IMG/VR virus record: IMGVR_UViG_3300025012_000066
Location: 1-64,000 of that record
Length of the DNA: 64,000 bases
Source of the DNA: a virus
Reading direction: 5' to 3' (one strand)
Part shown: positions 5,893-49,947 of the stretch, piece after piece
Layout: each line of letters begins with the position of its first letter
Position numbering within the stretch: position 1 is the first letter of the stretch
Notes under the pieces: generated by a model
The model's input: only the letters and a program-made list of their open reading frames with translations
Told to the model about the DNA's origin: nothing
The model's database searches: none
Position numbers and translations under genes: made by a program

Positions 5893-8800
5893 TTGGCTAA
5901 TAAAGATGATATGTTTGGGATAGGTATAAAATTAACTTGGACTCCACAAGAGTTAACAAGTCAAATTAATGCAATACAAAATTACATAACTAAGAACCAT
6001 AATCTAAAAATAAATCTTAACTTAAACGAAGCTACATTAAAGGGATTGGAAAGATTAAGTCAACTTTCTAAATCTGCTGCAAAAGAACTTAATGCAATAA
6101 AAGCACCAATGTTTAATCTTGATAACCCAAATCAAGAAGCACAAAAATATATTGGAACAATAAATAATTTAGTTTCTACTTTTCAAAAATTTAAAGGTCA
6201 AACTTCAGTTGTTTATGATGAGTTTGGTAAGGTAAGTTTAAAGGTTGATACAGCAAGTGGTGCTATTAAAAGATATACATTGCAATGGGATGAACTAACT
6301 CAAAGACTTTCAAGAACAAATATGAGAAATATCGATAATTCTAATGTAAATATTGAAAGAGAATTACAATTGCGTCAGCGATTAAATGCTCAAATACAAA
6401 ATAATGCTGAATCTTTGCAACATTATCTTAGAATTCAACAAATGAACTTAAACTCTTCAATGAGTAGATTTGAAACTCAAAGAACCGGATTGTACAATGT
6501 TGATGAATTAAATAATTTAAGAACTAGATTAAATCAATTAACTCCAACAACAGAAAATTTAAGAAGAAATGTAGGATTATTAAGAGCAGAGTTTAATGCA
6601 TTAAACACAACTGCAATTGCCAATGGAATAAATACCGTAAATAGAAATGCGATGTCTCTAGGAGAAAGTTTAAAACTTGTAGCTTTTAAAATGCTTACGT
6701 GGCTTGGGATGGGAAATTTAATTTTTGGAACTATTTCCCAAATAAAATCTGCAGTGGTTTTTATCAAGGATCTAGATTCTGCCATGATTAATCTAAAAAA
6801 AGTTACAAATGAAACATCTACTGCATATAAAGAATTTGAAAATGATGCAGGTAATTTAGGTAGAGAGCTTGCTAGAACGACAATAGAAGTGGTCAAGGCT
6901 ACGGCAAATTTTGCTAAAATGGGATATACGCTACGAGAAGCAAAGGAATTAGCAAAAGAAGCACTGATTATGCAAAATGTTGGTGATATTGAAAATGTTG
7001 ATAAAGCAACTCAATATTTAATTGCAACATTAAAAGGATTTAATTTACAAGCAACCCAAAGTGCAAAAGTTGTCGATATTATGAATGAAGTGTCGAATTT
7101 ACACAGTATTACGGTAGATGGATTAGGAAAAGCTTATGAGCGATCTTCGGCAGTAATGGCTCAGGCAGGAAATACTATCGAAGAAACTACTGCATTATTA
7201 ACTTCCGCGAACGCCGTGGTCCAAAATCCGGAAAAGGTAGGAAATGGATTTAAAACTTTAGCACTCAGACTTAGAGGTGTCGATGAAGAAGCAAAAGAAT
7301 TATTTCCAAAATTAGAAGCAGATTTAAATGCTGTTGGAGTTCAGTTAAGAAATGTTGATGGTGGATGGAGAAGCACTTATAATATTCTTAAAGATTTCTC
7401 AAAGGTCTATATGCAAATGCCAGATATGGCTAGAAGTAAGCTTCTTGAAGATATGTCAGGTAAATATCAGGCTAATATTTTAGCTGCCACGCTTCAGAAC
7501 TTTTCCGAAGCGGAAAAGACATTGGAAGACGCATTGACATCTGTAGGGTCAAGTGCTCGTGAAAATGAAATATATTTAACCTCAGTTGAAGCAAGAGTAC
7601 GACAATTTAAGGTAAGTTTAGAGGAATTATACAAATTATTTCTCTCTTCAGACTTGCTTAAAGGTGGCATAAGTGTTCTTGGAGGGCTAGTTAGTGTAAT
7701 GAGTGGTGTTTCTTCTGTTTTTGGTGGAATTCCAGCATTAGCTGGGGCAGCTACTACATCAGTTTTAGTATTTTCTAGTGCTCTTAGAACATCAATTTAT
7801 GAAACCATTAGATTAAAAGTTGAACAATATGGGTTTCTACGTTCTATTCCTGCTTTATGGTTAACTGCTACTGGTGGAGTTAGAGGATTTTCGGGAACTT
7901 TAGCATTTTTACGCACTAGTTTAACATCAACAAGAATTGCAGTAATTGCACTACAAACAACTATGACATTAGGATTAAGTTTAGTTATTACTGGTGTAAT
8001 TGCATTAGTTCAAAAATTAGTAGAAGCTCTTGGTAGATCAAAAAATGCAATGGATGAACAAAGTCAAGCATTTAAAGATACTTTAGATAACTTGGGTAAT
8101 CTTACTTCTGATTATGAAAAAGCAAATAAGCTAATTGCTATATATAATGAATTATCTAAAGTAACTAATAAAACAGTCGATCAAAAGCAGAAATTGGTTG
8201 ATGTACAACAACAATTAGCACAACTTTTTCCTTCATTAGTGACAGGTTATGATTTAGAAGGTCAAGCAATTTTAGATTTGGATTCAAAACATGATGATCT
8301 TATTGCTAAAAAGAAAGAAGAAATCAACTTAGAAACCAAACGTCTTTCTTCTCAATTTTATCAAAATCAAGCGATTTGGATTCAATCTATGGTTGAATCT
8401 CAGAAAGAATTAAATAAATTAAAAATAGAACAAAAAGACATCCAAGATAATATAGATAATATTAAAACTAATACTAGTCTATCAGAAGATGTGAAGGAAT
8501 CTTATTTAGTTGGATGGTATGAAAAGTTCGATGCGGTTAGTGGAAAAATATCTGATACTCAGTTAAAATTAAATAAGGTAAAAACAACTTACGATCAAGG
8601 TTTAACATCAACTGTTAAATATGAATTGGAGTCATTAAAACTTTCTAATGATACCATAAACAATTTTTCTGATAATTATTTATCGCTAGTTGAGGTTTTA
8701 AAGAATAGTGGTAATGATCCCTCTGTTGTTTTGAGGGGAATATTTGAGTCGATAAAGAAAAATTCTGATATACAAAATGTCTTTAAGAATTGGACTGATG

Positions 8801-11800
8801 CTCAAAATAAATATAAAGAAGGATCTATTGAAGCTGTTGAAGTTGAAAAGTTACATAAGAAGACAATTGATGATTTAACTGAATCACTAAAAAAATCTAA
8901 TCCTGAATTAAAACCAGAAATAGTTGATTCGATTGCACAGTCTTTTATTTTATTAGGAAATGTTACTCCCAAAGTTAAAGATGGGATAGATTCTACAGCA
9001 CAATCTTTTGCTACTCTCCAAGAAACCCTATCCGATTCCTCTTCTGCAATCTCAGAGATACAATCTGCTCTTGATTCCTATAATGAGACAGGGAAATTTA
9101 GTCTTGATAATATTATCAAATTGTCTTCTACATATCCTAAACTCCTTGGAATGCTAGGCGATGAAAAAGCTATCCGCGAAGAACTAACAAACATTATAGA
9201 ACAAGAACAAGAAAAATCCAGACAAGCTTATATTGTTATGCTCAATGGAAGTGTTAATTTCTATAATAAAAACATTGAAGGTATACAAAAATTTGTCGCT
9301 GGATTAGATGGTGCTCGCGAAGTTGATTTATCTGGAGCAAAATCATTAGCTGAAGCAAAATTAAAAGTCGAAAATGAACTAATGAAGAATCTAGCAGGAA
9401 TGTGGTCACAATATTATGATGCCCAAGGCAATATGACTAAGGCTAATATTATTGATGGTGGAAGAACTATTGTAGGCCAAGATGGTAAGGAAACCTATAT
9501 TACTCCTGAAATGAGAGCACAACTTAAGGCGTATTATGATGCTTCTTCAGCAGTTAAGAAGAAGTTTGATGATATTGCAATGAGTGGAACAAAAAGCATA
9601 GACTTCTCCAAACTCGGTATGTCTAAAAGTGACTCTAAGAAAAAAGAAGAAAAACTCCTCTCAATAGAATCCACAACCCAAGCACTCATCAATCAAATCC
9701 AACAAGAATATCTCCTCCAAAAAGCCAAATCAGATTCAATCCAAAAAGACCTCTCTCAAGCACAATCCCAAAAAGACTATGCAAAAACTCTCGAACTGAC
9801 CAACTCTTTAATTTCCTCGCAAGCTCAAGAATTATCTCTTCTTTCTACAGCTCGCTCCAAAATAAACCAAGCAAAAGATTCTGCAATATCTTCTGCATCA
9901 TCTCAATTTGGTAACATCAGTGAACGTTGGTTTACTGGAAATGATAATCAAGAAAGCGTTGCATATATTGAAGAACACAATAAAGCATCAGAAAAAACTC
10001 GTAAGATTATGGAAGAAACTTTTAAATCACTTCAATTATTAAGAAATGCTTGGATGTCTAATAAATCTACTATGGACGAAAATGCTGAATCATCTAAATC
10101 CCTCAAAACATCCCTAACTCAAATCCAAATAGATAAATTTAACCAATCTATCTCATTCCTTGACGATTCAATTTCTCAATCAAAAGCAAATCTAGACCTC
10201 TATTCCACATCTTCCCAAGAATATTCTAATGAGCAATCCTATCAAATCTCTCTTCTTCAACAAAAGAAATCAGCTATTGATTCTGAAATATTATCTTTAA
10301 AATCCCAACTTGTTAACACAGAATTAACAACCGAAGCAACTGTATTATTAAGCGAAGCATTAAAAACTTCTATATCAGATGGAATAAATGCTCAAAAGGC
10401 ATTATTAGATGCAAAATCCTCAATTGCGGATTCAGTAATATCAACAATGAAATCATCCCTTGAAACTCAAAAAGATATTGCATTAAAATCCATAGACTTA
10501 CAAATGGATGCAGAAGATAAACGTCATACTAACGAAATAGACAATATTGAAAAAGAAACAAAAGAGACTGCAAAAAAATACAAAACTATTACTGATGATA
10601 TTGATGCCCAAACTGAAGCAGAAGTAGATCGTCATAAAATAGCAACTGATAATATTGATGCAGAAATTGAAACCGAAGAAAAAAGACATACATCTGTCAT
10701 AGATAATATTGATGCAGAAATAGCTAAACTAAATGAGCAAGCAGATACGGATTCTTATAATACCAAATTAGCTAAAGATCAAAAAGAAGCCCAAGATATA
10801 CAGGATAAAATAAATATATTGTCTCTTGATAATTCTTTAGAAGCTAAAGCTAAAATTTCCGATTTAAATGATGAACTTTCTGAAAAGCAAATTGCTATTG
10901 CAGATTTTCAACAAAAGCATAGTCTTGATTTGCAAAATAAAAATCTACAAAGACTTAAAGATGCAGAAAATACTAAAAATGATTTGCGGAATAAGGATTT
11001 TAAGAATTTTAAAGACGTAGAAGATACTAAAAATGATTTAATAAACAAAAATCTTAAAACTTATAAAGATGCTCAATCTGATATAAATGATTCTCAAAAT
11101 GAATATTATCAAAATATGAAAGATGCAGAAGATAATAAAAATAAAATCATAAAAGATGGTTTAGATTTGCAGAAAAAGAATCAAGAGTATTTTTGGAATG
11201 AGCAAATTAATAATGAAAGATATTTTGCCAGTCTCCGCACTCAAATAATAAATGGCAATATAGACCAAATGAAGACAAAGTTAACTTCATTTTTAGCTGA
11301 TTTTAAGAATATGAATGAGGAAACTGCAAAAGCACTAGGTGTAAGTTGGACAGGATTGCAAAGTTTGATTGATGGGGTTCAAGCTTCTCAAACTAACTTA
11401 AATGTTATTTCTAATGGAGTAACTACGCCTTATTATCCTGGCACGACAATGAATGGAGTCCCTGTAAGTAATAACGGTAGTTCTAGTTCATCCTCTAGCT
11501 CCGGAAGTAGTTCTACAAGTTCATCTAGTGGAAATTATGTTACATGGAACAACGGTTCTTCTGGGTGGAATGCACATGATTCTAGTGGTAACATAATTGC
11601 GTCAGGAGTAGCTAATCCACCTAAATATGCTGAAGGAGGAGAAACTCAATCAACTGGTATGCATTATTTAGATGGTAAAGTAGGAAAACCAGAAAGAGTA
11701 TTATCTCCGGTTCAAACTACAAGCTTTAACCAACTCGTAAAAGATTTACCTTCGCTCACTACTGTCATGGATAATTTAATGAAAAATAACCTACTGATGA

Positions 11801-29301: not shown

Positions 29302-30498
29302 ATGAGTAATGGTAATGTATTAGTAGAGTCCCAATCAGCAAGAGAAGAATTAGTAGTCAAGGTAAGTGAGGAAAGAGTTGGAGAAATCTTAAACAAGGTA
29401 AAAGGTTTAGTTTTGTTGGCAGATGATACACACGTGACGACAGAAATGGTTGCGAATTTTTATGAAGTTGGACTAGAAGCAATAAACAGTTTGATAAAAG
29501 ATCATCGTAATGAATTAAATACTGATGGGTTAACGGTTTTAGAGGGTGAACAACTAAAGTCCTTTAAGAACATCTGTCAAATTGAGTCAAGGGCAAGAGC
29601 TTTAACGATTATTCCTCGCAGAGCAATACTTCGTATAGGTATGATTTTAAGAGATAGTATTATCGCTCAACAAGTTAGAACTTATTTACTTGATGTTGAA
29701 GGTAATACAAAAGTAGAAGATAAACTCATTGCATTAGGACAAGAAACTAACAATATAATATCAATATTAAATGAAAAGGTAGATAATTTACAATTGAGTA
29801 ATAATACACTTAGACAAAATAATAGTGTAATTATTACAGACAATGAAGAATTAAAACATAATGTCTTAATGTTAATAACTAAAGTTGATGAATTATTAGA
29901 GCAACCTCTTTTCAAGATCCACTCTAATTCTAGTAGATTATATGACATGTTAATTATAAATGACTTTATGAATGCAATGGAATCATTAGGAATGAAAAAA
30001 TCATATGATAAACATTACGCTTTGTTTAATAAAGAGTTTGAGAATTGGACAGGAATAAATTTTGGTGATAAGAAAATAAATAAAAAACAATATTGGATTT
30101 CATATTATGGAATTGAATCAATAAAGCAATTTATCGTTGGTATTGCACAGAAAATAATTATTAAAAATGATAATGGATATTGGGTTAGCAAAGCAGGTAT
30201 TTATAGCAATAAAGTTGAATGGAAGAAAATATTAAATTCCTTTGGCAATAAATGTGCTTATTGCAGTAGCGAAGAAATAATTCTAGCAGAACATATTGTG
30301 CCACAAAGTAGTGAGGGATCAACCGATTGTATTCATAATTTAATTCCAAGTTGTTCTCTTTGTAATGATAGAAAAGGTACAATGGATATGAAGTCATGGA
30401 TAGAACTTAAAAGAAAAGAGGGAATGACTGATGAACAATATGAAAAAATTAGAGATCATTGGAGAAAATATCATATTGTTTTAGATTTAGATATTTAA
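29302..30498 (+). CDS. antirepressor-like DNA-binding domain + coiled coil + HNH endonuclease
   Basis: VTTEMVANFYEV...RRAILRIGMILRDS; CAYC..EHIVP..NLIPSCSLCNDRKG. Confidence 0.8.
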   Translation: MSNGNVLVESQSAREELVVKVSEERVGEILNKVKGLVLLADDTHVTTEMVANFYEVGLEAINSLIKDHRNELNTDGLTVLEGEQLKSFKNICQIESRARALTIIPRRAILRIGMILRDSIIAQQVRTYLLDVEGNTKVEDKLIALGQETNNIISILNEKVDNLQLSNNTLRQNNSVIITDNEELKHNVLMLITKVDELLEQPLFKIHSNSSRLYDMLIINDFMNAMESLGMKKSYDKHYALFNKEFENWTGINFGDKKINKKQYWISYYGIESIKQFIVGIAQKIIIKNDNGYWVSKAGIYSNKVEWKKILNSFGNKCAYCSSEEIILAEHIVPQSSEGSTDCIHNLIPSCSLCNDRKGTMDMKSWIELKRKEGMTDEQYEKIRDHWRKYHIVLDLDI

Positions 30499-31888: not shown

Positions 31889-32080
31889 ATGGAATCAAAT
31901 ATAATTGAATTAAAGACATTTTATGTAAAAAGCATGAAATTAGCCGGATTTCTTATGATGAAAGGGTTTGTCCTTCATGGAGTAAAACCAGAGGAAAATT
32001 CAAACAGAAATATATTCTTATTCACAAATAGTCCTCAATTATTAAAAGCAATTGAGCAATATAAACAAATCAAGAAGTAA
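31889..32080 (+). CDS. DUF5659-like small protein
   Basis: RBS AAGGAG; KLAGFLMMKGF...RNIFLF..SPQL. Confidence 0.8.
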   Translation: MESNIIELKTFYVKSMKLAGFLMMKGFVLHGVKPEENSNRNIFLFTNSPQLLKAIEQYKQIKK

Positions 32081-32083
32081 AAA

Positions 32084-32219
32084 TATTTGACTACATAAAT
32101 AGTGTAGTTAAAACTTAGTTACTTATCCATAATGACAGTAAAAATATTTGACTACCACTTTTATGTAGTTCAATACTTACAATTTACTGTATTTGACTAC
32201 ATAAAACAGGTAGTCAAAT
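32084..32219. repeat. three palindromic sites TATTTGACTAC-N9-GTAGTY (iteron/operator-like)
   Basis: Copies start at 32084, 32145 and 32190, each with a 9-bp spacer. Confidence 0.85.
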
Positions 32220-32349: not shown

Positions 32350-33876
32350 ATGACAGAAAAACAAACATTAAATAATAAAGGTATATTTTGCAAGTTACCA
32401 AATGAATTATTCTATTTCTCTGAAAAGAATCAAGACTCAGATCCTAAAAAAAGGAAGTTTAGCATATTGGAAAATACAAAATCAGATAAAGGTAAATTTA
32501 ATTATAAATCATTGTATATTTTAGACTTCATTTATATGAATAAGAATATGAGAAATATTACAAATTTCTATCTTAAAGATATGATTACTGATTGTGGTTA
32601 TAAATATAACACTAGAACTGGTGAATCAGTTGATCAATTCAAACAAATATTGTCCAAATTGCAAGAGTTAAAATTAATAAGTTGTGATATCAATTTTATA
32701 GATGTAAAAGTTAATGAAAGAATATCATGCACATTAGATATTGATTTAGATAATCAATTCTTTATGCTTTATGATTGTGATAAAGAGAAAATACTTAATC
32801 AAACTATAGATAAAACAGACAATATGAATCTCCTTGTTTATTTTTGCTACTTGACCTGTAAAATGTATAAGCGTCCAAAAGGTGATGAAGTTGAAAAATC
32901 AGGTGGTAGAACAGAGGTATGTTGGCCTCCATATAAAACAATTAATAAGGAGTTAGGTTTTGTTGATGATTCGATTAATAAATATAACAAAATATTGGTA
33001 GAGTTAGATTTAATAAGAGTTGGAAATGCAGGATTATGGTATTACAAAGATGATATTAATAAAGCACTAAAAGAGAGTTGTAATATTTATACTTTATTCA
33101 CCACTGAAGATGAATCTACTCATAATCTTAAAGAAGGTATTAAATACTGGAAGAAATTAGATACAAATCAGAATAGAGTATTCAAAGGCACTAGGGAATA
33201 TGAGAATAATAATCGTAAACTTAATGGAGAATTAGGTTCTATTATTAAGAAAGAAAATTTGGGAACTGTAACAGCAGAAGATATTGTTAGAAAAGGTGAA
33301 ATATTAGCGTCAACAAAACCTGATGAAGAAAAGTATAAAATCATGTCAATATTAGATGCTAACCCTAATGAATTATTGTCTAATATATTTGAAGGTAAAA
33401 ATATTGAGATTTCAGAAAAATATTATGATTTAGAGGATTCTTTAGGTTTGATGGATGGAGAAAATTTAGCAGATGGTATCAAATATGAGGATTATAAATG
33501 GGTAATGATTAATTATAAAGAGAATGAGCATCAAAAGTTTATTGATTATGTTGTCAAGAAAAAGACAGATGTATTTGATATCATTGATAATCGTACATCA
33601 GCAGAGATTAAGGGTAGAGGGTTACAGAATAATAAGAGAAAATTGATTATAGAAGATACTGTGAATGTAACTGTAAGCAATGAGCCAGATATATTTGAAG
33701 ATTGGTTTAATGTAGATGAATGTGATAATAATAATGATTTGACTGATGAAGAATATCAAGCAAAACAAGAATGTATTGAGTTGAATCATGCTCAAATACC
33801 CGATGAAGTGTTGAGAGAAATAGAAGAAGATATGTATAATAGGAATAAAGAAAATATCTTTGAGATGTTTTTATAA
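32350..33876 (+). CDS. putative replication initiator (winged-helix)
   Basis: CWPPYKTINKELGF...SINKYNKILVELDLI wHTH pattern; acidic tail; preceded by repeated sites. Confidence 0.55.
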   Translation: MTEKQTLNNKGIFCKLPNELFYFSEKNQDSDPKKRKFSILENTKSDKGKFNYKSLYILDFIYMNKNMRNITNFYLKDMITDCGYKYNTRTGESVDQFKQILSKLQELKLISCDINFIDVKVNERISCTLDIDLDNQFFMLYDCDKEKILNQTIDKTDNMNLLVYFCYLTCKMYKRPKGDEVEKSGGRTEVCWPPYKTINKELGFVDDSINKYNKILVELDLIRVGNAGLWYYKDDINKALKESCNIYTLFTTEDESTHNLKEGIKYWKKLDTNQNRVFKGTREYENNNRKLNGELGSIIKKENLGTVTAEDIVRKGEILASTKPDEEKYKIMSILDANPNELLSNIFEGKNIEISEKYYDLEDSLGLMDGENLADGIKYEDYKWVMINYKENEHQKFIDYVVKKKTDVFDIIDNRTSAEIKGRGLQNNKRKLIIEDTVNVTVSNEPDIFEDWFNVDECDNNNDLTDEEYQAKQECIELNHAQIPDEVLREIEEDMYNRNKENIFEMFL

Positions 33877-36650: not shown

Positions 36651-36905
36651 ATGTATAAAGTAAAAGTAAAGATTATTATGACAGCAATATTAGAGGTTGA
36701 AATCAACCAAGAGAAAATGTTTGATCCTGATGACTTTGAGGAAGAAGATATACCGACCATTAATGATTCTATTAAAGGAGTTGTAGAAAGTTATATTGAT
36801 AATCCTATAGCTTTTGTGGATGATGAAAGTGTTAAGATAAACATAAGGCATGAAGTTATTGGAGAAATTCAAAAGTGTAAAATTAAAGCAGAGATAATGA
36901 ATTAA
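36651..36905 (+). CDS. hypothetical protein
   Basis: ORF in operon. Confidence 0.6.
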   Translation: MYKVKVKIIMTAILEVEINQEKMFDPDDFEEEDIPTINDSIKGVVESYIDNPIAFVDDESVKINIRHEVIGEIQKCKIKAEIMN

Positions 36906-36975
36906 CTTAATAAGGGGAAGTAAAATTCCCTTTCTGCTTTTTCTTTTCTTATGAATATAAAAAATAATATTATCC

Positions 36976-37102
36976 TTGACAAACTTTGGCAGATAGTGGT
37001 ATGATGAAAGAGTAGAAAGTGAGGTGAGGGAAAATGGATATTAAATCAATAAATAAATTTTACAAAATAAAACTTGACAGGCATTTCCACTTATGGTAAA
37101 CT
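36976..37102 (+). promoter_or_regulatory. two sigma-A-type promoters upstream of the CRISPR locus
   Basis: TTGACA(36976)-N18-TATGAT and TTGACA(37074)-N17-TAAACT, both with TGn extension. Confidence 0.7.
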
Positions 37103-37202
37103 GATTATAGGTTGAAGCAAGAAATAAAAAGAAAAGTTGTGATAATTAATGTTTATAAATACATAAATAAATTATTAAGTTCACAATCATTAATTAAATA
37201 AA

Positions 37203-37426
37203 AGGCCATCTTAGAAAGGTATTCCTTTAGTTGTGTTTTTAACAACTTGGCCTAAAATCGAGAAGTGTTCATAATATCTTATTTATAAGGTTGTGAATAA
37301 CACTCGTAAGGTAATGGGAATAATGCGAATGTAAGGTATACATAAAAATACTAGGTATTTCGCACCCATTGAAACTGCTGGCACAAATACCGTCCAGCAC
37401 TCTTATATGTATATACAAATTGTAAC
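37203..37426 (+). ncRNA. tracrRNA of the Cas12f system (ends approximate)
   Basis: Anti-repeat 37401-37426 is 25/26 complementary to the repeat; several stems; CGAGAAGTG, TAACACTCGTAAGGTA, TGAAACT and GCACAAA.ACCG blocks resemble AsCas12f1 tracrRNA as I remember it. Confidence 0.8.
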
Positions 37427-37429
37427 AAT

Positions 37430-37491
37430 TAAATAGGTTCGCATTTTATATAGTTGTAAGTGTTGGTGTGATTGAGTTGCAATGTAGGGCT
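37430..37491 (+). promoter_or_regulatory. CRISPR leader-like sequence
   Basis: Directly 5' of repeat 1; AATAGGTTCGCA...TAAGTGTTGG resembles clostridial leaders. Confidence 0.45.
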
Positions 37492-37656
37492 GTTACAACT
37501 TGTGTGTATGTATAAGATGTAAGTATCACTCCTCTTAAACCTCTATTAATGTTCTTCCGTTACAACTTGCATATACATATAAGATATAAGTATCAAGATA
37601 TTCCAAAAGGCAAAATCACACATCGTTACAACTTGTATATACATATAAGATGTAAG
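37492..37656 (+). CRISPR. mini CRISPR array: 3 repeats (32-34 bp), 2 enclosed spacers, possible third terminal spacer
   Basis: GTTACAACTTGTATATACATATAAGATGTAAG-type repeats at 37492, 37559 and 37625 (period 67/66); unrelated spacers of 35 and 34 bp. Confidence 0.93.
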
Positions 37657-37721
37657 TACCTTTGCACCAATCTTATTTACGATTTTAACTCATAAAAATA
37701 AATTAAAAGAGGATGATATAA

Positions 37722-39081
37722 ATGAATCAATGTGTAAAAATTGAAATAAAGAAAACGATTATAAAAAAATATTGGATTATAGGAAAATATTAAGAGATTT
37801 AAGGTATCAATCATGGTTAGCGTTCAATAAAGCAATGACTTATTTTTGCACATTTGCTATGGAAAATATGGAATACAAGGAATTAAATGGTGTAAATATA
37901 AATGAACGTGAAAGATTTGGTAAAACTCATGGAGCTTGGATACAAAACAGAATGAATGAAGTTATGGTATCTCATAATAGTGGAAATGTTGCTCAAGCAT
38001 ATCAATTTGTATCAAAAAGATTTAGTGATGATAAAAAGAAAGGTGTGTTCAAAGGGCAGTCTGGAGTTTCAAATTTTAAGTTAAATGATCCAATAATTAT
38101 AAAGAACACTAATTATAAAATTAATGTTAATAATAAGGGATTTGAAGTTGAATGTAGTTTATTTAATAGGATATATCAAAAAGAAAATAATATAAAACAA
38201 GTGAATTTCACTATTGAAAGTTTGGGTACTAGCCAAAAATTTATATTAAATAAAATTATATCTGGAGAATACAAACAAGGGTCTGCACAAATTATTGAAG
38301 ATAAAAAGAAAAGTGATAAGTGGTATCTAATAATAAGTTTTAGTTTTGAACCAGTTACAAGGCAATTAGATATGAATAAAGTATTAGGAATTGACTTAGG
38401 ATTAGTAAATACAGCAGTAATGCAAGTATTTGATATGAGTACTGAAAAATGGGATAAATTATCTTGGAATGAGATAAATTATCTTGGAATGAGAGCGTAA
38501 TTAATGGCAAGGAAATATCACAGTTTAGAAATAAACTAAATGCTAGAAAAAGGCAAATTCAAAAAGCCAGTAAAATTGTTGGTAATGGGAGAATAGGGCA
38601 TGGTAGAAATACTAGAATGAAACCATTGATAGATATTGGTGATAAAGTAGCAAGATTTAAAGATACATATAACCATAAAGTTAGCAAATACATAGTAGAA
38701 TTTGCTGTAAAACATAATTGTGCTACAATTCAAATGGAAAATCTAAGTGGATTTTCAGAACAACAATCAGTAAAATTTTTAAAGAATTGGGCATATCATG
38801 ATTTGCAAACAAAGATTCAATATAAATGTGAAGAAAAGGGTATTAAGTTCGTACTCATTGACCCAAAGTACACAAGCAAGAGATGTAGTCATTGTGGATG
38901 TATTAGTGATGAAAATAGAGATTGCAAGGGTAATCAAGCAAGGTTTAAATGTGTTACATGTGGACATGAAGAAAATGCAGATATTAATGCTGCAAAAAAT
39001 ATTAGTATACCAATGATTGATAGTATTATTGTGGATCAATTGAAGATGATGAAAGAGTTTAAGGATAAGAAGATTAGTTAA
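37722..39081 (+). pseudogene. cas12f: Cas12f1 (type V-F, AsCas12f1-like) nuclease split by two frameshifts
   Basis: RuvC motifs GIDLG / MENL / NADINAA; CSHC..CVTC zinc finger; GHGR..RMKP; RBS AGAGGA + ATG 37722. Reconstructs to about 446 aa after adding one base near 37763-37769 and removing the 20-bp duplication at 38453-38492. Confidence 0.9.
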
Positions 39082-39177
39082 TATGATCTAGTGTTTAAAT
39101 ACGTTATTAACTCCTTACCCACCAAGGATTAATATAAATAGGGTTGTGACCTACACTAAATTAGAAAGGGGCAAATT

Positions 39178-39738
39178 ATGTCTAAAAATATTAATATTGA
39201 AACCCAAGTTCAACTCGATGAAAAAAGTCACATTATTCTCAATGAGAAATTAAAAACCTTTAATTTAGACAGTGATATGAATTATGCTGTTGCAGTTCTG
39301 AAAATATTTATTACAAATTCAGAATCAAAGAAATATAATAAGTTAGCTGTTAATGTTGTACCTAAAGTACAATTTGTTGTACCATTTGTTTCAAAAATAC
39401 TGGCAACTGAATATATGAAGGAATTGTCTCAGAAAAATAAGTTAATGATGTTTCTTCATGTTGAAAAAGGTAATATTGTTGTAAAAGATGAAGATATTGA
39501 TTTAGCTATTAATAATTTACTAAATACATCAACAAGTCCAGAAATAGAATATGAAGAAATATCTAGATTAAGTTTATTTAATCTTATTGCCTATAATTGG
39601 ATGAATTTCTCAGAACAAGAAAAAGATGAATATGCTTATAAACTAGGAGGATTGAACGGGCATTATCACATACGAGCACTACTTGATAATTGGGAATTTA
39701 GTCCTGAGTTTGAGAAAGAAGTAGTAAACTATATATAA
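39178..39738 (+). CDS. hypothetical protein
   Basis: RBS AAAGGGG. Confidence 0.7.
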   Translation: MSKNINIETQVQLDEKSHIILNEKLKTFNLDSDMNYAVAVLKIFITNSESKKYNKLAVNVVPKVQFVVPFVSKILATEYMKELSQKNKLMMFLHVEKGNIVVKDEDIDLAINNLLNTSTSPEIEYEEISRLSLFNLIAYNWMNFSEQEKDEYAYKLGGLNGHYHIRALLDNWEFSPEFEKEVVNYI

Positions 39739-39833
39739 AATTTATTAAACATACTACTTAGTGATATCTGCTGAGGTGGGCAGTAGATATAAAGATTAAA
39801 ATATAAAATAAATTAATGGAGGTTTAAATTAAC

Positions 39834-40661: not shown

Positions 40662-41912
40662 TTGGGCAAAAATTTTACTATTGACTATGAAATTATTAGT
40701 AGTTTTAAATTAAAATTGGTGGGAACAGAACCTAAAAACGCAAAACAAAATTTTACAATGGAAGACAAAGAGGGATATATTTATTTTGGCAATTTAAGTG
40801 ATATGAAACAAAAATTGAAACAGAATCATTCTCTGAGTAGATTTCATACATCAAATTCGCATACTATAGATAATATAAAACTATGGTGCAAATTAAATAG
40901 TGTTGAATTGGAATTAGTAAGTACAATATATTTAAACAACAAACAAAAACTGGTGTTCAAAGACAAAGAAGGATATTATTATCTTTTATCTTTAGATTGC
41001 CTGCGAAGAAATTCGACGGCTTCTAGATTTCACAAATCAAACTCATATACAATACAAAATATAAAACTATGGTGCAATTTAAATAATAAACCATTTAAAT
41101 TAATTAGTAAAATATATGTTGGTGCTGATGATAAATTAGAATGGCAATGTTTAAAAGATGGTTGTGGCGAAATATTCAAAATGAAATGGAGTCATATTTA
41201 TGATAACCACGGTTGTGGGTTCTGTCATGGCAAACAAATTGGTTTGTCAAATTGTCTTGAAACTTTAAGATTTAAACTTTCTAAAGAATGGCATCCTATA
41301 AAGAATGGTGATTTAACTCCATTTGATGTAACAGTAAGTAATGGAGAGTATGCTTGGTGGAGTTGTAAAAAATGTAATCATGAATGGGAAGCAGTTATTG
41401 CTAGTAGAAGTAGTGGAATTGGTTGTCCTAGATGTGCTGAAATTAATGCAGAATCTCATTTACAGAAGAGAACAAGACTATACATAAATGAATGTGGATA
41501 CGATGTATTACATGAAAAAGAATGCACGTTAAATCCTAAAAATATAATAAACCCTCCTGTAAATATTATAAGCAATAAACAGAGAAGAAAGGGGATATTA
41601 AGATATGATAATGAAATAATAATTGATAATAGACATCTTTTTATCGAAGTTAACGGACAGCAACATGATTTAGAGGATAATATATTTAATATAAAATCTT
41701 CTAAAAAGCACAATACCACACCAAAAGAAGAGTTAGAATATCTTAAAGCTAGGGATAAATTTAAAGAACAATATGTACATATGCAAGGAGAAAATTATTA
41801 TTACTTAGTATTGTGGTATTACGATTTTGATAAAGAGGATACATATAAAAAATTGATAGATGATAAGATAAATGAGGTATTATCAAACCTTCCACTCCCA
41901 AAAGCAATATAG
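40662..41912 (+). CDS. homing endonuclease-like protein (tandem repeats, zinc ribbon, DUF559-like nuclease)
   Basis: Duplicated DKEGY..SRFH..NIKLWC unit; EWHPIKNG..WWSCKKCNHEW..GCPRC; YD..IEVNGQQH. Confidence 0.8.
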   Translation: MGKNFTIDYEIISSFKLKLVGTEPKNAKQNFTMEDKEGYIYFGNLSDMKQKLKQNHSLSRFHTSNSHTIDNIKLWCKLNSVELELVSTIYLNNKQKLVFKDKEGYYYLLSLDCLRRNSTASRFHKSNSYTIQNIKLWCNLNNKPFKLISKIYVGADDKLEWQCLKDGCGEIFKMKWSHIYDNHGCGFCHGKQIGLSNCLETLRFKLSKEWHPIKNGDLTPFDVTVSNGEYAWWSCKKCNHEWEAVIASRSSGIGCPRCAEINAESHLQKRTRLYINECGYDVLHEKECTLNPKNIINPPVNIISNKQRRKGILRYDNEIIIDNRHLFIEVNGQQHDLEDNIFNIKSSKKHNTTPKEELEYLKARDKFKEQYVHMQGENYYYLVLWYYDFDKEDTYKKLIDDKINEVLSNLPLPKAI

Positions 41913-41932
41913 TTAAATACATAAATAATTAT

Positions 41933-42112
41933 TATATTGTACCAGTATCACCTATTCAGATGAGATTTCCAGTATATAATAGTAGTATATTTTCATCGTG
42001 GGAAGGTCATTTTCGTATACTTGGAGATCAAGAAGCAAGGGATATAGTTTATCATAGTGGATTAGGTTCAAAAACAAATTGTGGATTTGGCTGTTTGGAT
42101 AGGGTTATATAA
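41933..42112 (+). pseudogene. cas6: cas6 C-terminal remnant
   Basis: Manual translation ...SSWEGHFRILGDQEARDIVYHSGLGSKTNCGFGCLDRVI* contains the Cas6 glycine-rich loop; no 5' part or RBS. Confidence 0.75.
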
Positions 42113-48426: not shown

Positions 48427-49947
48427 ATGGGATTGATTAGTACAGAGGTTGAGGTTGGAGTAAATGGCAAAAATATTGAACAATATGAAGAAAAAGGTTA
48501 TAAATTTGAAAGATATTATAATGAACATAATAGAAAAATGTTAGTTAGAAAAGGAACAAAGATAAAAGTTAGAGTAGAAGATTTAGGTGATAAATCTAGT
48601 GCGAAGGTAGATGCAGAATGTGATGGCTGTGGTAAAGAATTAAAAGGAATAAGATGGGTAGATTATAAGGAACAAGTAAAAGAAGATGGAAAATATTTTT
48701 GTATAAGATGTGCTAGTGCTGGATTTAAACAATGGATAAGTTTTTATAAATGGTGCTATGATAATTTACCAAAAGAATTAGCAGATTATATATTAAGTAG
48801 ATGGAATAAAGAATTAAATATTGATAAAGATGGCAACCAATTAACTTCTCACGATGTTAGTTATGCTTCACAAGGTATAGACAGGAAAGGATATTGGTTT
48901 AATTGTTTAGATAACTTTGAACACAAACCAGAACAAAAACATATAAGTTCTTTTACAGGAGGACAAAGAGGTAGTCTTGATTGTGATATGTGTAACACCA
49001 TTTTTGTTACTCATCATCACTTAGTACACTTCTTTGTTAATAAAGAGGATGCACATAAATACTCTTTTGGATCAGGTAAGTATGTATTAGTTAAATGTCC
49101 AGACTGTAGTTATGAAAAAAGAATTAAAATTTCCAATTTGGTAAATCACGGGTTTGGTTGTAATCGTTGCGGAGATGGTGTTAGCTTCTCAGAAAAGGTT
49201 ACGATAAATGTTTTAGAACAATTACACGAAACATTTATAATTCAATTATCTAAAACTACTTTTAAATGGTGTAAAGATTATAGATATGATTTATATATAA
49301 ATAAAATAAATGGGATTTGCGAGGTTATGGGCAACCAACACTACGAAGAAACATATGGCAAATGGGGGACATTGCAAGAGATACAAGAAAATGATAGGGA
49401 CAAAGAAAATTTAGCTAAAGAAAATAATATTACTAATTACATAATTATAGACTGTAGGAGAAGTGAATTAGAATGGATTAAAAACAATATTATGAATCGT
49501 GATCCAAGTCGTCCAGATCAACAATGTCTTGCAGAAGTATTAAACTTTAATGAATCTGATATTGATTGGTTAAAAGTCTATGAATCAGGGTTCAGAAACT
49601 TAGTTAAGACAGCATGTATTTTATGGAATGAAGGACTTAAAAGCACAGTCAAGATAGGGAATAATTTAAATTTAAGTAGTGGAGCAATAAGAAATTATCT
49701 CAAAAAAGGAACTGAATTAGGATGGTGTTCTTATAATCCAAAAGAAGAGATATGTGAGAAAGTAATATGCTTGACAACTGGTGAAATATTTAACTCCATA
49801 CATGAAGCTTCATTGAATGGTAGAGAATCAATTAGACCAAATATTTCTGCTTGTTGTAAAGGAAAACATAAATCAGCAGGCAAGTCAATAACTGGCGAGC
49901 CGTTGGTTTGGATGTACTATGATAAATATTTAGAAATCAACAAATAA
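48427..49947 (+). CDS. homing endonuclease-like protein (zinc ribbons, DUF559-like, NUMOD1-like C-terminus)
   Basis: CDGCG, CPDC, CNRC; YRYD..EVMGNQH; VICLTTGEIFNSIHEAS..ISACCKGK. Confidence 0.8.
   Translation: MGLISTEVEVGVNGKNIEQYEEKGYKFERYYNEHNRKMLVRKGTKIKVRVEDLGDKSSAKVDAECDGCGKELKGIRWVDYKEQVKEDGKYFCIRCASAGFKQWISFYKWCYDNLPKELADYILSRWNKELNIDKDGNQLTSHDVSYASQGIDRKGYWFNCLDNFEHKPEQKHISSFTGGQRGSLDCDMCNTIFVTHHHLVHFFVNKEDAHKYSFGSGKYVLVKCPDCSYEKRIKISNLVNHGFGCNRCGDGVSFSEKVTINVLEQLHETFIIQLSKTTFKWCKDYRYDLYINKINGICEVMGNQHYEETYGKWGTLQEIQENDRDKENLAKENNITNYIIIDCRRSELEWIKNNIMNRDPSRPDQQCLAEVLNFNESDIDWLKVYESGFRNLVKTACILWNEGLKSTVKIGNNLNLSSGAIRNYLKKGTELGWCSYNPKEEICEKVICLTTGEIFNSIHEASLNGRESIRPNISACCKGKHKSAGKSITGEPLVWMYYDKYLEINK

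Follow-up and report, generated by a model that had tools for sequence, protein, structure and literature searches.

A phage-borne CRISPR-Cas12f cassette of the V-F1 (V-U3) clade whose nuclease gene has probably been inactivated recently

The cassette and its phage carrier

In this study, we analysed a CRISPR-Cas cassette in the IMG/VR virus record IMGVR_UViG_3300025012_000066, a 75,469-bp entry that represents ~45% of a phage according to CheckV; its first 64 kb (positions 1 to 64,000, GC content 26–35%) are called the window here. The cassette spans positions 36904–39082 (~2.2 kb, plus strand) and consists of promoter-like sites, a trans-activating CRISPR RNA (tracrRNA), a leader, a short repeat-spacer array and a cas12f gene. 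This layout, with the RNA parts upstream of the nuclease gene, had been put forward in an original prediction, and every element described there is present at or near the place it had been given. The prediction that the locus is phage-encoded is likewise sound, because the record is an IMG/VR virus entry and the window encodes a 2,033-aa tape measure protein and minor tail proteins; several HNH/homing endonucleases are also encoded. The carrier is a large tailed phage whose host is a low-GC Firmicute, and the cassette is accessory cargo. As had been noted for cas1, cas2, cas4 and tnpA, no Cas1, Cas2, Cas4, Y1 TnpA (PF01797) or serine recombinase (PF00239) was found anywhere in the 75,469-bp record. 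On the evidence given below, we consider it very probable that the locus is a self-contained type V-F1 (V-U3 clade, AsCas12f-like) CRISPR-Cas12f cassette, the nuclease of which was recently inactivated in the window copy.

Two relatives serve for comparison: L135 (contig Ga0209728_1000651), which was found with spacer 2 in a second metagenome scan and is 91% identical over window positions 36904–39230, and L006 (IMGVR_UViG_3300024999_000356). Homology to the window begins on the left at 36904 in L135 and at 36910 in L006. The features of the cassette, all on the plus strand, are as follows.

36912–36933, plus: terminator-like hairpin of the upstream gene (terminator scan), marking the left edge of the cassette common to the relatives
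36976–37005, plus: promoter-like site P1, TTGACA-18-TATGAT, TG-extended, 11/12 consensus positions, kept in L006; putative function
37074–37102, plus: promoter-like site P2, TTGACA-17-TAAACT, TG-extended, 10/12 consensus positions, kept in L006; putative function
37203–37400, plus: tracrRNA scaffold with several stable stems (fold, covariation, 94% identity to L135)
37401–37426, plus: anti-repeat, 26 nt, the 3' part of the tracrRNA, pairing with all three repeats
37427–37491, plus: leader, 65 nt from anti-repeat to repeat 1, with a conserved TTCGCA ... TTGGTRTGAT element
37492–37527, plus: repeat 1, a variant with four transitions relative to repeat 3
37528–37558, plus: spacer 1, 31 nt, no protospacer found in the collections named below
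37559–37594, plus: repeat 2, pairing with the anti-repeat
37595–37624, plus: spacer 2, 30 nt, also in the L135 array
37625–37660, plus: repeat 3, the best complement of the anti-repeat (duplex analysis)
37661–37721, plus: trailing stretch of 61 nt with the cas12f ribosome-binding site (AAAGAGGA), 100% identical to L135
37722–39081, plus: cas12f pseudogene of the V-F1/V-U3 clade (tblastn of intact homologues, PADLOC, PDB, Pfam)
37744–37750, plus: lesion 1, the junction where 13 nt between direct AATAAA repeats are missing (13-nt deletion), with loss of the frame after codon 10 (alignment with L135)
38453–38492, plus: lesion 2, perfect 20-nt tandem duplication (2 x 20 nt), with loss of the frame between RuvC-I and RuvC-II (alignment with L135)

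A broken cas12f gene with intact relatives

The cas12f gene can be read only by passing through three frames (37722–37793, 37772–38500 and 38473–39081). Its two large fragments match best the Cas12u3/V-F models of PADLOC (3.5e-39 and 2.3e-73), and among PDB entries they match the solved AsCas12f structures 7wju, 8j12 and 8dzj (6.6e-28 and 4.1e-55); there is also a match to Pfam PF07282 (8.9e-23). The motifs GIDLG, QMENL and ENADINAAKN align to the catalytic motifs of AsCas12f (RuvC D/E/D), and a CxxC...CxxC zinc ribbon is present, so that the three acidic positions and the zinc finger claimed in the original prediction are all found. The tri-split RuvC and zinc ribbon (TNB domain) are thus recognizable, with their residues spread over two frames in the window copy. 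By contrast, scores against the TnpB models specific for IS200 and IS607 fall far short of the cut-offs (52 of 425 bits and 33–37 of 350 bits, respectively). We therefore classify the predicted effector as a Cas12f1/V-U3-type protein and not as a transposon TnpB; the predicted closeness to AsCas12f1 is borne out by profile, structural, covariation and comparative evidence.

The window holds no uninterrupted effector of ~400–500 aa; intact orthologues of 444–454 aa exist elsewhere. In L135 the gene is intact (448 aa) and 97% identical at the DNA level to that of the window, and its protein matches Cas12u3 over the full model length (1.3e-115) and AsCas12f over residues 23–439 (1e-87). Compared with L135, the window gene shows exactly two frame-breaking changes, namely the 13-nt deletion, which appears as a 25-nt gap against L006, and the 20-nt duplication, together with one in-frame 6-nt insertion. 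The remaining codon differences comprise 22 synonymous and 9 non-synonymous changes, a ratio which suggests that the gene was under purifying selection until recently and that the break is recent. With two independent frame-breaking lesions the gene is a pseudogene, and no effector can be made from the locus in its sequenced form. The repair implied in the original prediction corresponds to these two real lesions, and its reading of the locus as an RNA-guided nuclease cassette needs correction for this copy.

Other copies are broken as well. L006 carries 4-nt and 1-nt insertions in cas12f, and L007 has a 17-nt deletion inside RuvC while being otherwise near-identical to L005, in which the gene is cut by the contig end and is open over residues 65–444; in L013 and L014 it is intact. 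The indels in the window, L006 and L007 all differ, and loss of the nuclease is thus recurrent in this mosaic phage group.

These data bear on the possibility that the system is functional and that both lesions are assembly or population artefacts, the dominant genotype being intact. Such a reading would fit with the 97% identity of the gene to an intact sibling and the mostly synonymous differences, with intact alleles in sister contigs, and with the fact that metagenome assemblies can collapse or duplicate short repeats. However, a 13-nt deletion and a perfect 20-nt duplication are not homopolymer errors, single-base indels are absent from the other 1.3 kb of coding sequence, window open reading frames (ORFs) of 1,400–2,000 codons are intact, and the other multi-base frameshifts in L006 and L007 indicate that breakage is a recurrent real event. 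We therefore regard an artefact as improbable.

Outside the phages, a second, heavily degraded cas12f copy with 14 stop codons is present in Sarcina ventriculi (G002 C5:61163-62366) on the same contig as an intact homologue, and this is a further case of decay in the Cas12f family.

The tracrRNA, the anti-repeat and the leader

The RNA region is structured: the plus-strand fold of 37195–37530 has a predicted energy of -91 kcal/mol (z = -4.9 versus shuffles). Within the scaffold, stem 1 (~37203–37253) is variable and shorter in L013, L014 and L015, and the conserved core is 37248–37399. Homologues of this core lie on the gene strand in 10 other loci, and the consensus structure of the 11 sequences comprises 30 pairs, 92.7% of which are paired across the alignment. 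Compensatory double changes are seen in 12 of the 30 pairs, compared with 5.0 +/- 1.4 in column shuffles (0/500 reach 12) and 3–4 in controls with slid partners. A search of the literature for the core motif gave no match.

The anti-repeat forms duplexes of 25–26 bp with the repeats (-27 to -32 kcal/mol, versus -6 to -8 for shuffled repeats), in line with the structured region ending in a 26-nt anti-repeat that had been predicted. It also co-varies with the repeats between the window and L006, both at ATATG/CATAT versus ATACG/CGTAT and at TCTTAT/ATAAGA versus CCTTAT/ATAAGG. Taken together, the duplex energies, this co-variation and the covariation of the scaffold mark the region in silico as a predicted tracrRNA. 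At each of the four positions where repeat 1 departs from repeat 3 (A-to-G or C-to-U), a G:U wobble with the anti-repeat results, which would be the pattern expected from selection for tracrRNA pairing.

P2 is likely to be the promoter of the tracrRNA. The leader motif is conserved in the window, L013, L014, L015, L016 and L135 and may represent an extended -10 promoter for the array, the window hexamer, TGTGAT, being weaker. A different idea was considered for this position. In Streptococcus pyogenes the long form of the tracrRNA autoregulates, and with this as a model a degenerate 'repeat 0' followed by a conserved guide targeting the cassette's own promoter was proposed. It was dropped, as TTGGTATGAT is more simply read as the extended -10 element and a true repeat at the position after the anti-repeat occurs only in L006.

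That exception is an observation in its own right. In L006 (4824–4878) a repeat copy lies directly 3' of the anti-repeat and forms with it a perfect 18-bp hairpin with a 10-nt loop; the 3' end of the repeat and a spacer follow, giving a natural single-guide-like tracrRNA/crRNA (CRISPR RNA) fusion at the position where the window and four other relatives have the conserved leader element. Sequences resembling the tracrRNA core, together with repeat clusters, were also seen on both sides of cas12f in L053 (2963–3130 and 4898–5041), a Bacillota metagenome-assembled genome. Between P1 and P2, and overlapping P2, the window has a 21-codon ORF with a good ribosome-binding site (37025–37090), which is probably not coding, as it is cut to 9 codons in L006.

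A short array with one candidate target

Three repeats adjoin the gene, as had been predicted; they are 36 nt long, non-identical and spaced 67 and 66 nt from start to start, and they enclose two true spacers of 31 and 30 nt instead of the 32-bp repeats and 34–35-bp spacers first described. Downstream of repeat 3 comes the gene's own 5' leader of 61 nt. The order is R1-S1-R2-S2-R3 in the window and R1-S2-R-Sx-R3 in L135, and L006 and L013 carry other spacers; the arrays thus turn over by loss or recombination even without Cas1–Cas2.

The first 24 nt of spacer 2 match exactly in five contigs belonging to one group of phages with 36% GC (L009–L011 and L134; L133 is the same contig as L009), which is unrelated to the window phage. 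The matching stretch belongs to an ORF of 1,086 aa that weakly resembles tape measure proteins, and all mismatches lie beyond position 24. Cas12f cleaves near position 24, and the guide beyond it no longer matters (PMC7229846). From a composition-based estimate, ~0.03 chance matches would be expected in IMG/VR for the 22-mer searched and ~0.002 for the 24-mer, and the reversed-sequence control gave 0 hits. The match to a tape-measure-like gene of unrelated phages suggests use against competing phages, which are the likely targets of the cassette.

Spacer 1 has no protospacer in its own record, the phage and plasmid collections, IMG/VR or the metagenomes, and the array as a whole gave only chance-level hits in the phage and plasmid collections. 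The 75-kb record contains no self-target, the fetched loci do not target one another, and the trailing pseudo-spacer (the first 22 nt of 37661–37721) has no match in IMG/VR; no targets were found for spacer Sx of L135 or for a spacer of L006.

Proposed mode of action and alternative explanations

For the intact copies we propose the following sequence of events. The upstream sigma-A-type promoters would drive a tracrRNA of ~200–300 nt, the 3' anti-repeat of which would pair with the first 26 nt of each repeat in the co-directional pre-crRNA. By analogy with Cas12f biology, a host RNase, probably RNase III, would trim the tracrRNA:pre-crRNA duplexes, and a Cas12f dimer would bind one tracrRNA:crRNA pair. 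The complex would then cut double-stranded DNA flanked by a protospacer-adjacent motif (PAM) and matching approximately the first 20–24 nt of the spacer; PAM-dependent, RNA-guided cleavage by a dimer is inferred here from homology to AsCas12f (PMC7229846). With at least one spacer directed against a structural gene from an unrelated phage, the cassette would probably serve to exclude competing phages. In the absence of Cas1 and Cas2 the array would be short and old and would change only by recombination and drift, hence its degenerate repeats. In the window copy, the 13-nt deletion and the 20-nt duplication would have broken the nuclease and left the RNA parts intact, so that this copy is best seen as a decaying remnant without interference of its own.

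Several points weigh against this interpretation. The lesions are known from one metagenome assembly, and the record is ~45% complete, so that the absence of adaptation genes covers 75,469 bp only. A target was found for just one of the four real spacers that were searched, with a match of 24 of 30 nt and a rough chance expectation of 0.002–0.05, and a 5' T-rich PAM, which had been expected and is typical of AsCas12f, is not what was found: the 5' flank of the sole protospacer is GCATAT. As to the predicted tandem sigma-A-type promoters, sites with 11/12 and 10/12 consensus positions are indeed present, but the scan overall yields no more sites than shuffled sequence does, and the use of P1 and P2 is therefore a presumption from consensus matches only.

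It is also conceivable that the locus is kept for its RNAs, with the tracrRNA and crRNAs loading a Cas12f that a co-infecting relative, a prophage or the host provides in trans, or that the breaks act as a reversible on/off switch. The tracrRNA and the pairing of the repeats are preserved despite the broken gene, three of ~9 close copies are broken, each differently, slippage could in principle undo a tandem duplication, and intact alleles co-occur in the same sample series. On the other hand, the break is recent and may have left too little time for the RNAs to decay, the 13-nt deletion needs a template to revert, the window repeat is in none of 401 sampled genomes from the family of the closest cellular homologue, and no evidence of a trans partner was found. 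This explanation is accordingly very unlikely. A related and broader proposal is that the repeated knockout of cas12f in the window, L006 and L007, with the RNAs persisting, reflects selection for a switchable or RNA-only module; we give it little credence. If selection and not neutral decay were at work, the guides would be used by a Cas12f acting in trans, or a costly nuclease would be toggled within phage populations.

That the locus is the remnant of a TnpB transposon of the IS200/IS605 type with an omega-RNA-like upstream guide is scarcely credible, for although generic Pfam and NCBIfam TnpB models match the protein and relatives are annotated 'IS605 OrfB transposase' in their sources, Cas12u3 matches the L135 protein end to end, no TnpA genes were found in the record, the RNA precedes the gene and includes an anti-repeat and several repeats, with spacers that vary among relatives, and most members of the family are accompanied by arrays. 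The last point comes from a scan of 80 relatives (viral loci L012–L041 and cellular loci L053–L102), ~60 of which have a small repeat-spacer array beside the gene, which it precedes in the closest relatives and follows in others.

Comparison with known systems

The best structural match for both halves of the window protein and for L135 is AsCas12f1 of Acidibacillus sulfuroxidans (V-F1, formerly V-U3). V-U3 proteins, now Cas12f1, occur in Clostridia and Bacilli without adaptation proteins and include AsCas12f1 (Karvelis 2020, PMC7229846), which interferes with double-stranded DNA (PMC7229846). Both are similar in size (422 aa versus 444–454 aa here), share the RuvC D/E/D residues and the zinc ribbon, and are CRISPR- and tracrRNA-dependent without adaptation genes. 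The window protein differs in that its identity to AsCas12f1 is only ~58% in the C-terminal, catalytic half and clearly lower in the N-terminal half. Furthermore, the window element is phage-borne, it has its array and tracrRNA upstream of, and co-directional with, the gene, the flank of its single protospacer is not T-rich, and the gene is broken. Un1Cas12f1 (Cas14a1) belongs to the same subtype (1e-23), and its tracrRNA-dependent dimer architecture would by homology be shared; however it is much more distant and archaeal, and its locus includes cas1, cas2 and cas4.

Phage V-F variants that lack Cas1, Cas2 and Cas4 and have compact arrays with spacers against structural genes of other phages have been described previously (Al-Shayeb 2020, PMC7162821), and the window cassette adds an example to these published systems. 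Like other phage type V systems with short arrays and no Cas1/Cas2 (V-F variants, Cas12j/CasPhi and Cas12l/Cas-lambda), it is phage-carried and nuclease-only, with a mini-array and a spacer matching a structural gene of another phage. It differs from them in belonging to the bacterial V-U3/Cas12f1 clade and in needing a long tracrRNA, whereas CasPhi needs none. Viral effectors grouping with V-F1/V-U3 have also been noted in landfill viromes (2025). The lack of adaptation genes, which the original prediction had pointed out, is not special, as it defines the V-U3 branch (PMC7229846) and is the usual state of CRISPR loci in phages (Al-Shayeb 2020, PMC7162821); the window cassette shows this hallmark within its 75-kb record, which is ~45% complete. 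With the omega-RNA-guided TnpB proteins of IS200/IS605 and IS607 the cassette shares the ancestry of the RuvC/zinc-ribbon nuclease fold, but it has no transposase, serine recombinase or insertion sequence ends, and its guide comes from an array and an anti-repeat instead of a transposon end.

The locus is a well-resolved case of a Cas12f1 (V-U3) cassette that moves among related phages as a module reaching from promoter to stop codon, and it includes a tracrRNA, an array, a candidate target and natural alleles both intact and broken. It also illustrates how phage CRISPR loci without adaptation genes age: repeats drift with wobble pairing kept, spacers are shuffled or lost, and the nuclease is readily lost. 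The original prediction had proposed the repaired ~446-aa protein as a candidate new miniature editor. Its novelty was overstated, since intact natural orthologues (L135, 448 aa; P0001, 444 aa; P0002, 454 aa) and hundreds of relatives of 430–450 aa exist in public data, and no reconstruction is needed for a candidate editor. The orthologues, with ~58% identity to the catalytic half of AsCas12f, and the covariation-supported scaffold could be screened for this purpose, though many similar proteins are already known and the window copy is dead. What makes the locus of interest is its clean comparative setting, along with the intact orthologues, rather than the broken copy of the window.

Genomic surroundings of the cassette

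The cassette is in a mosaic region dense with genes for HNH and GIY-YIG-like homing endonucleases (window 29302–30498, 40662–41912 and 48427–49947), and L006 has the same endonuclease-rich setting (2079–2816, 6922–7941 and 8052–9131). The flanks are rearranged among sister phages; the gene at window 39100–39800, for example, lies upstream of the cassette in L014. No cultured phage matched the locus by megablast, and scanning the window for Rfam families and tRNAs gave no hits.

Directly after an HNH endonuclease gene, an unannotated 78-codon frame (41876–42109, plus strand) matches the C-terminal domain of Cas6 (PF01881; 5.2e-9, 37.4 bits versus a cut-off of 23). The glycine-rich loop is present and the N-terminal part is missing, and no homologue was seen in the fetched relatives; the frame may be a remnant of a class 1 CRISPR module in this lineage. 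Finally, the gap before a 508-codon ORF at 32350 contains, at 32076–32218, three direct repeats of 37 nt (TATTTGACTAC ... GTAGT), all of which include an inverted repeat; they look like repeated promoter or operator sites rather than CRISPR repeats.

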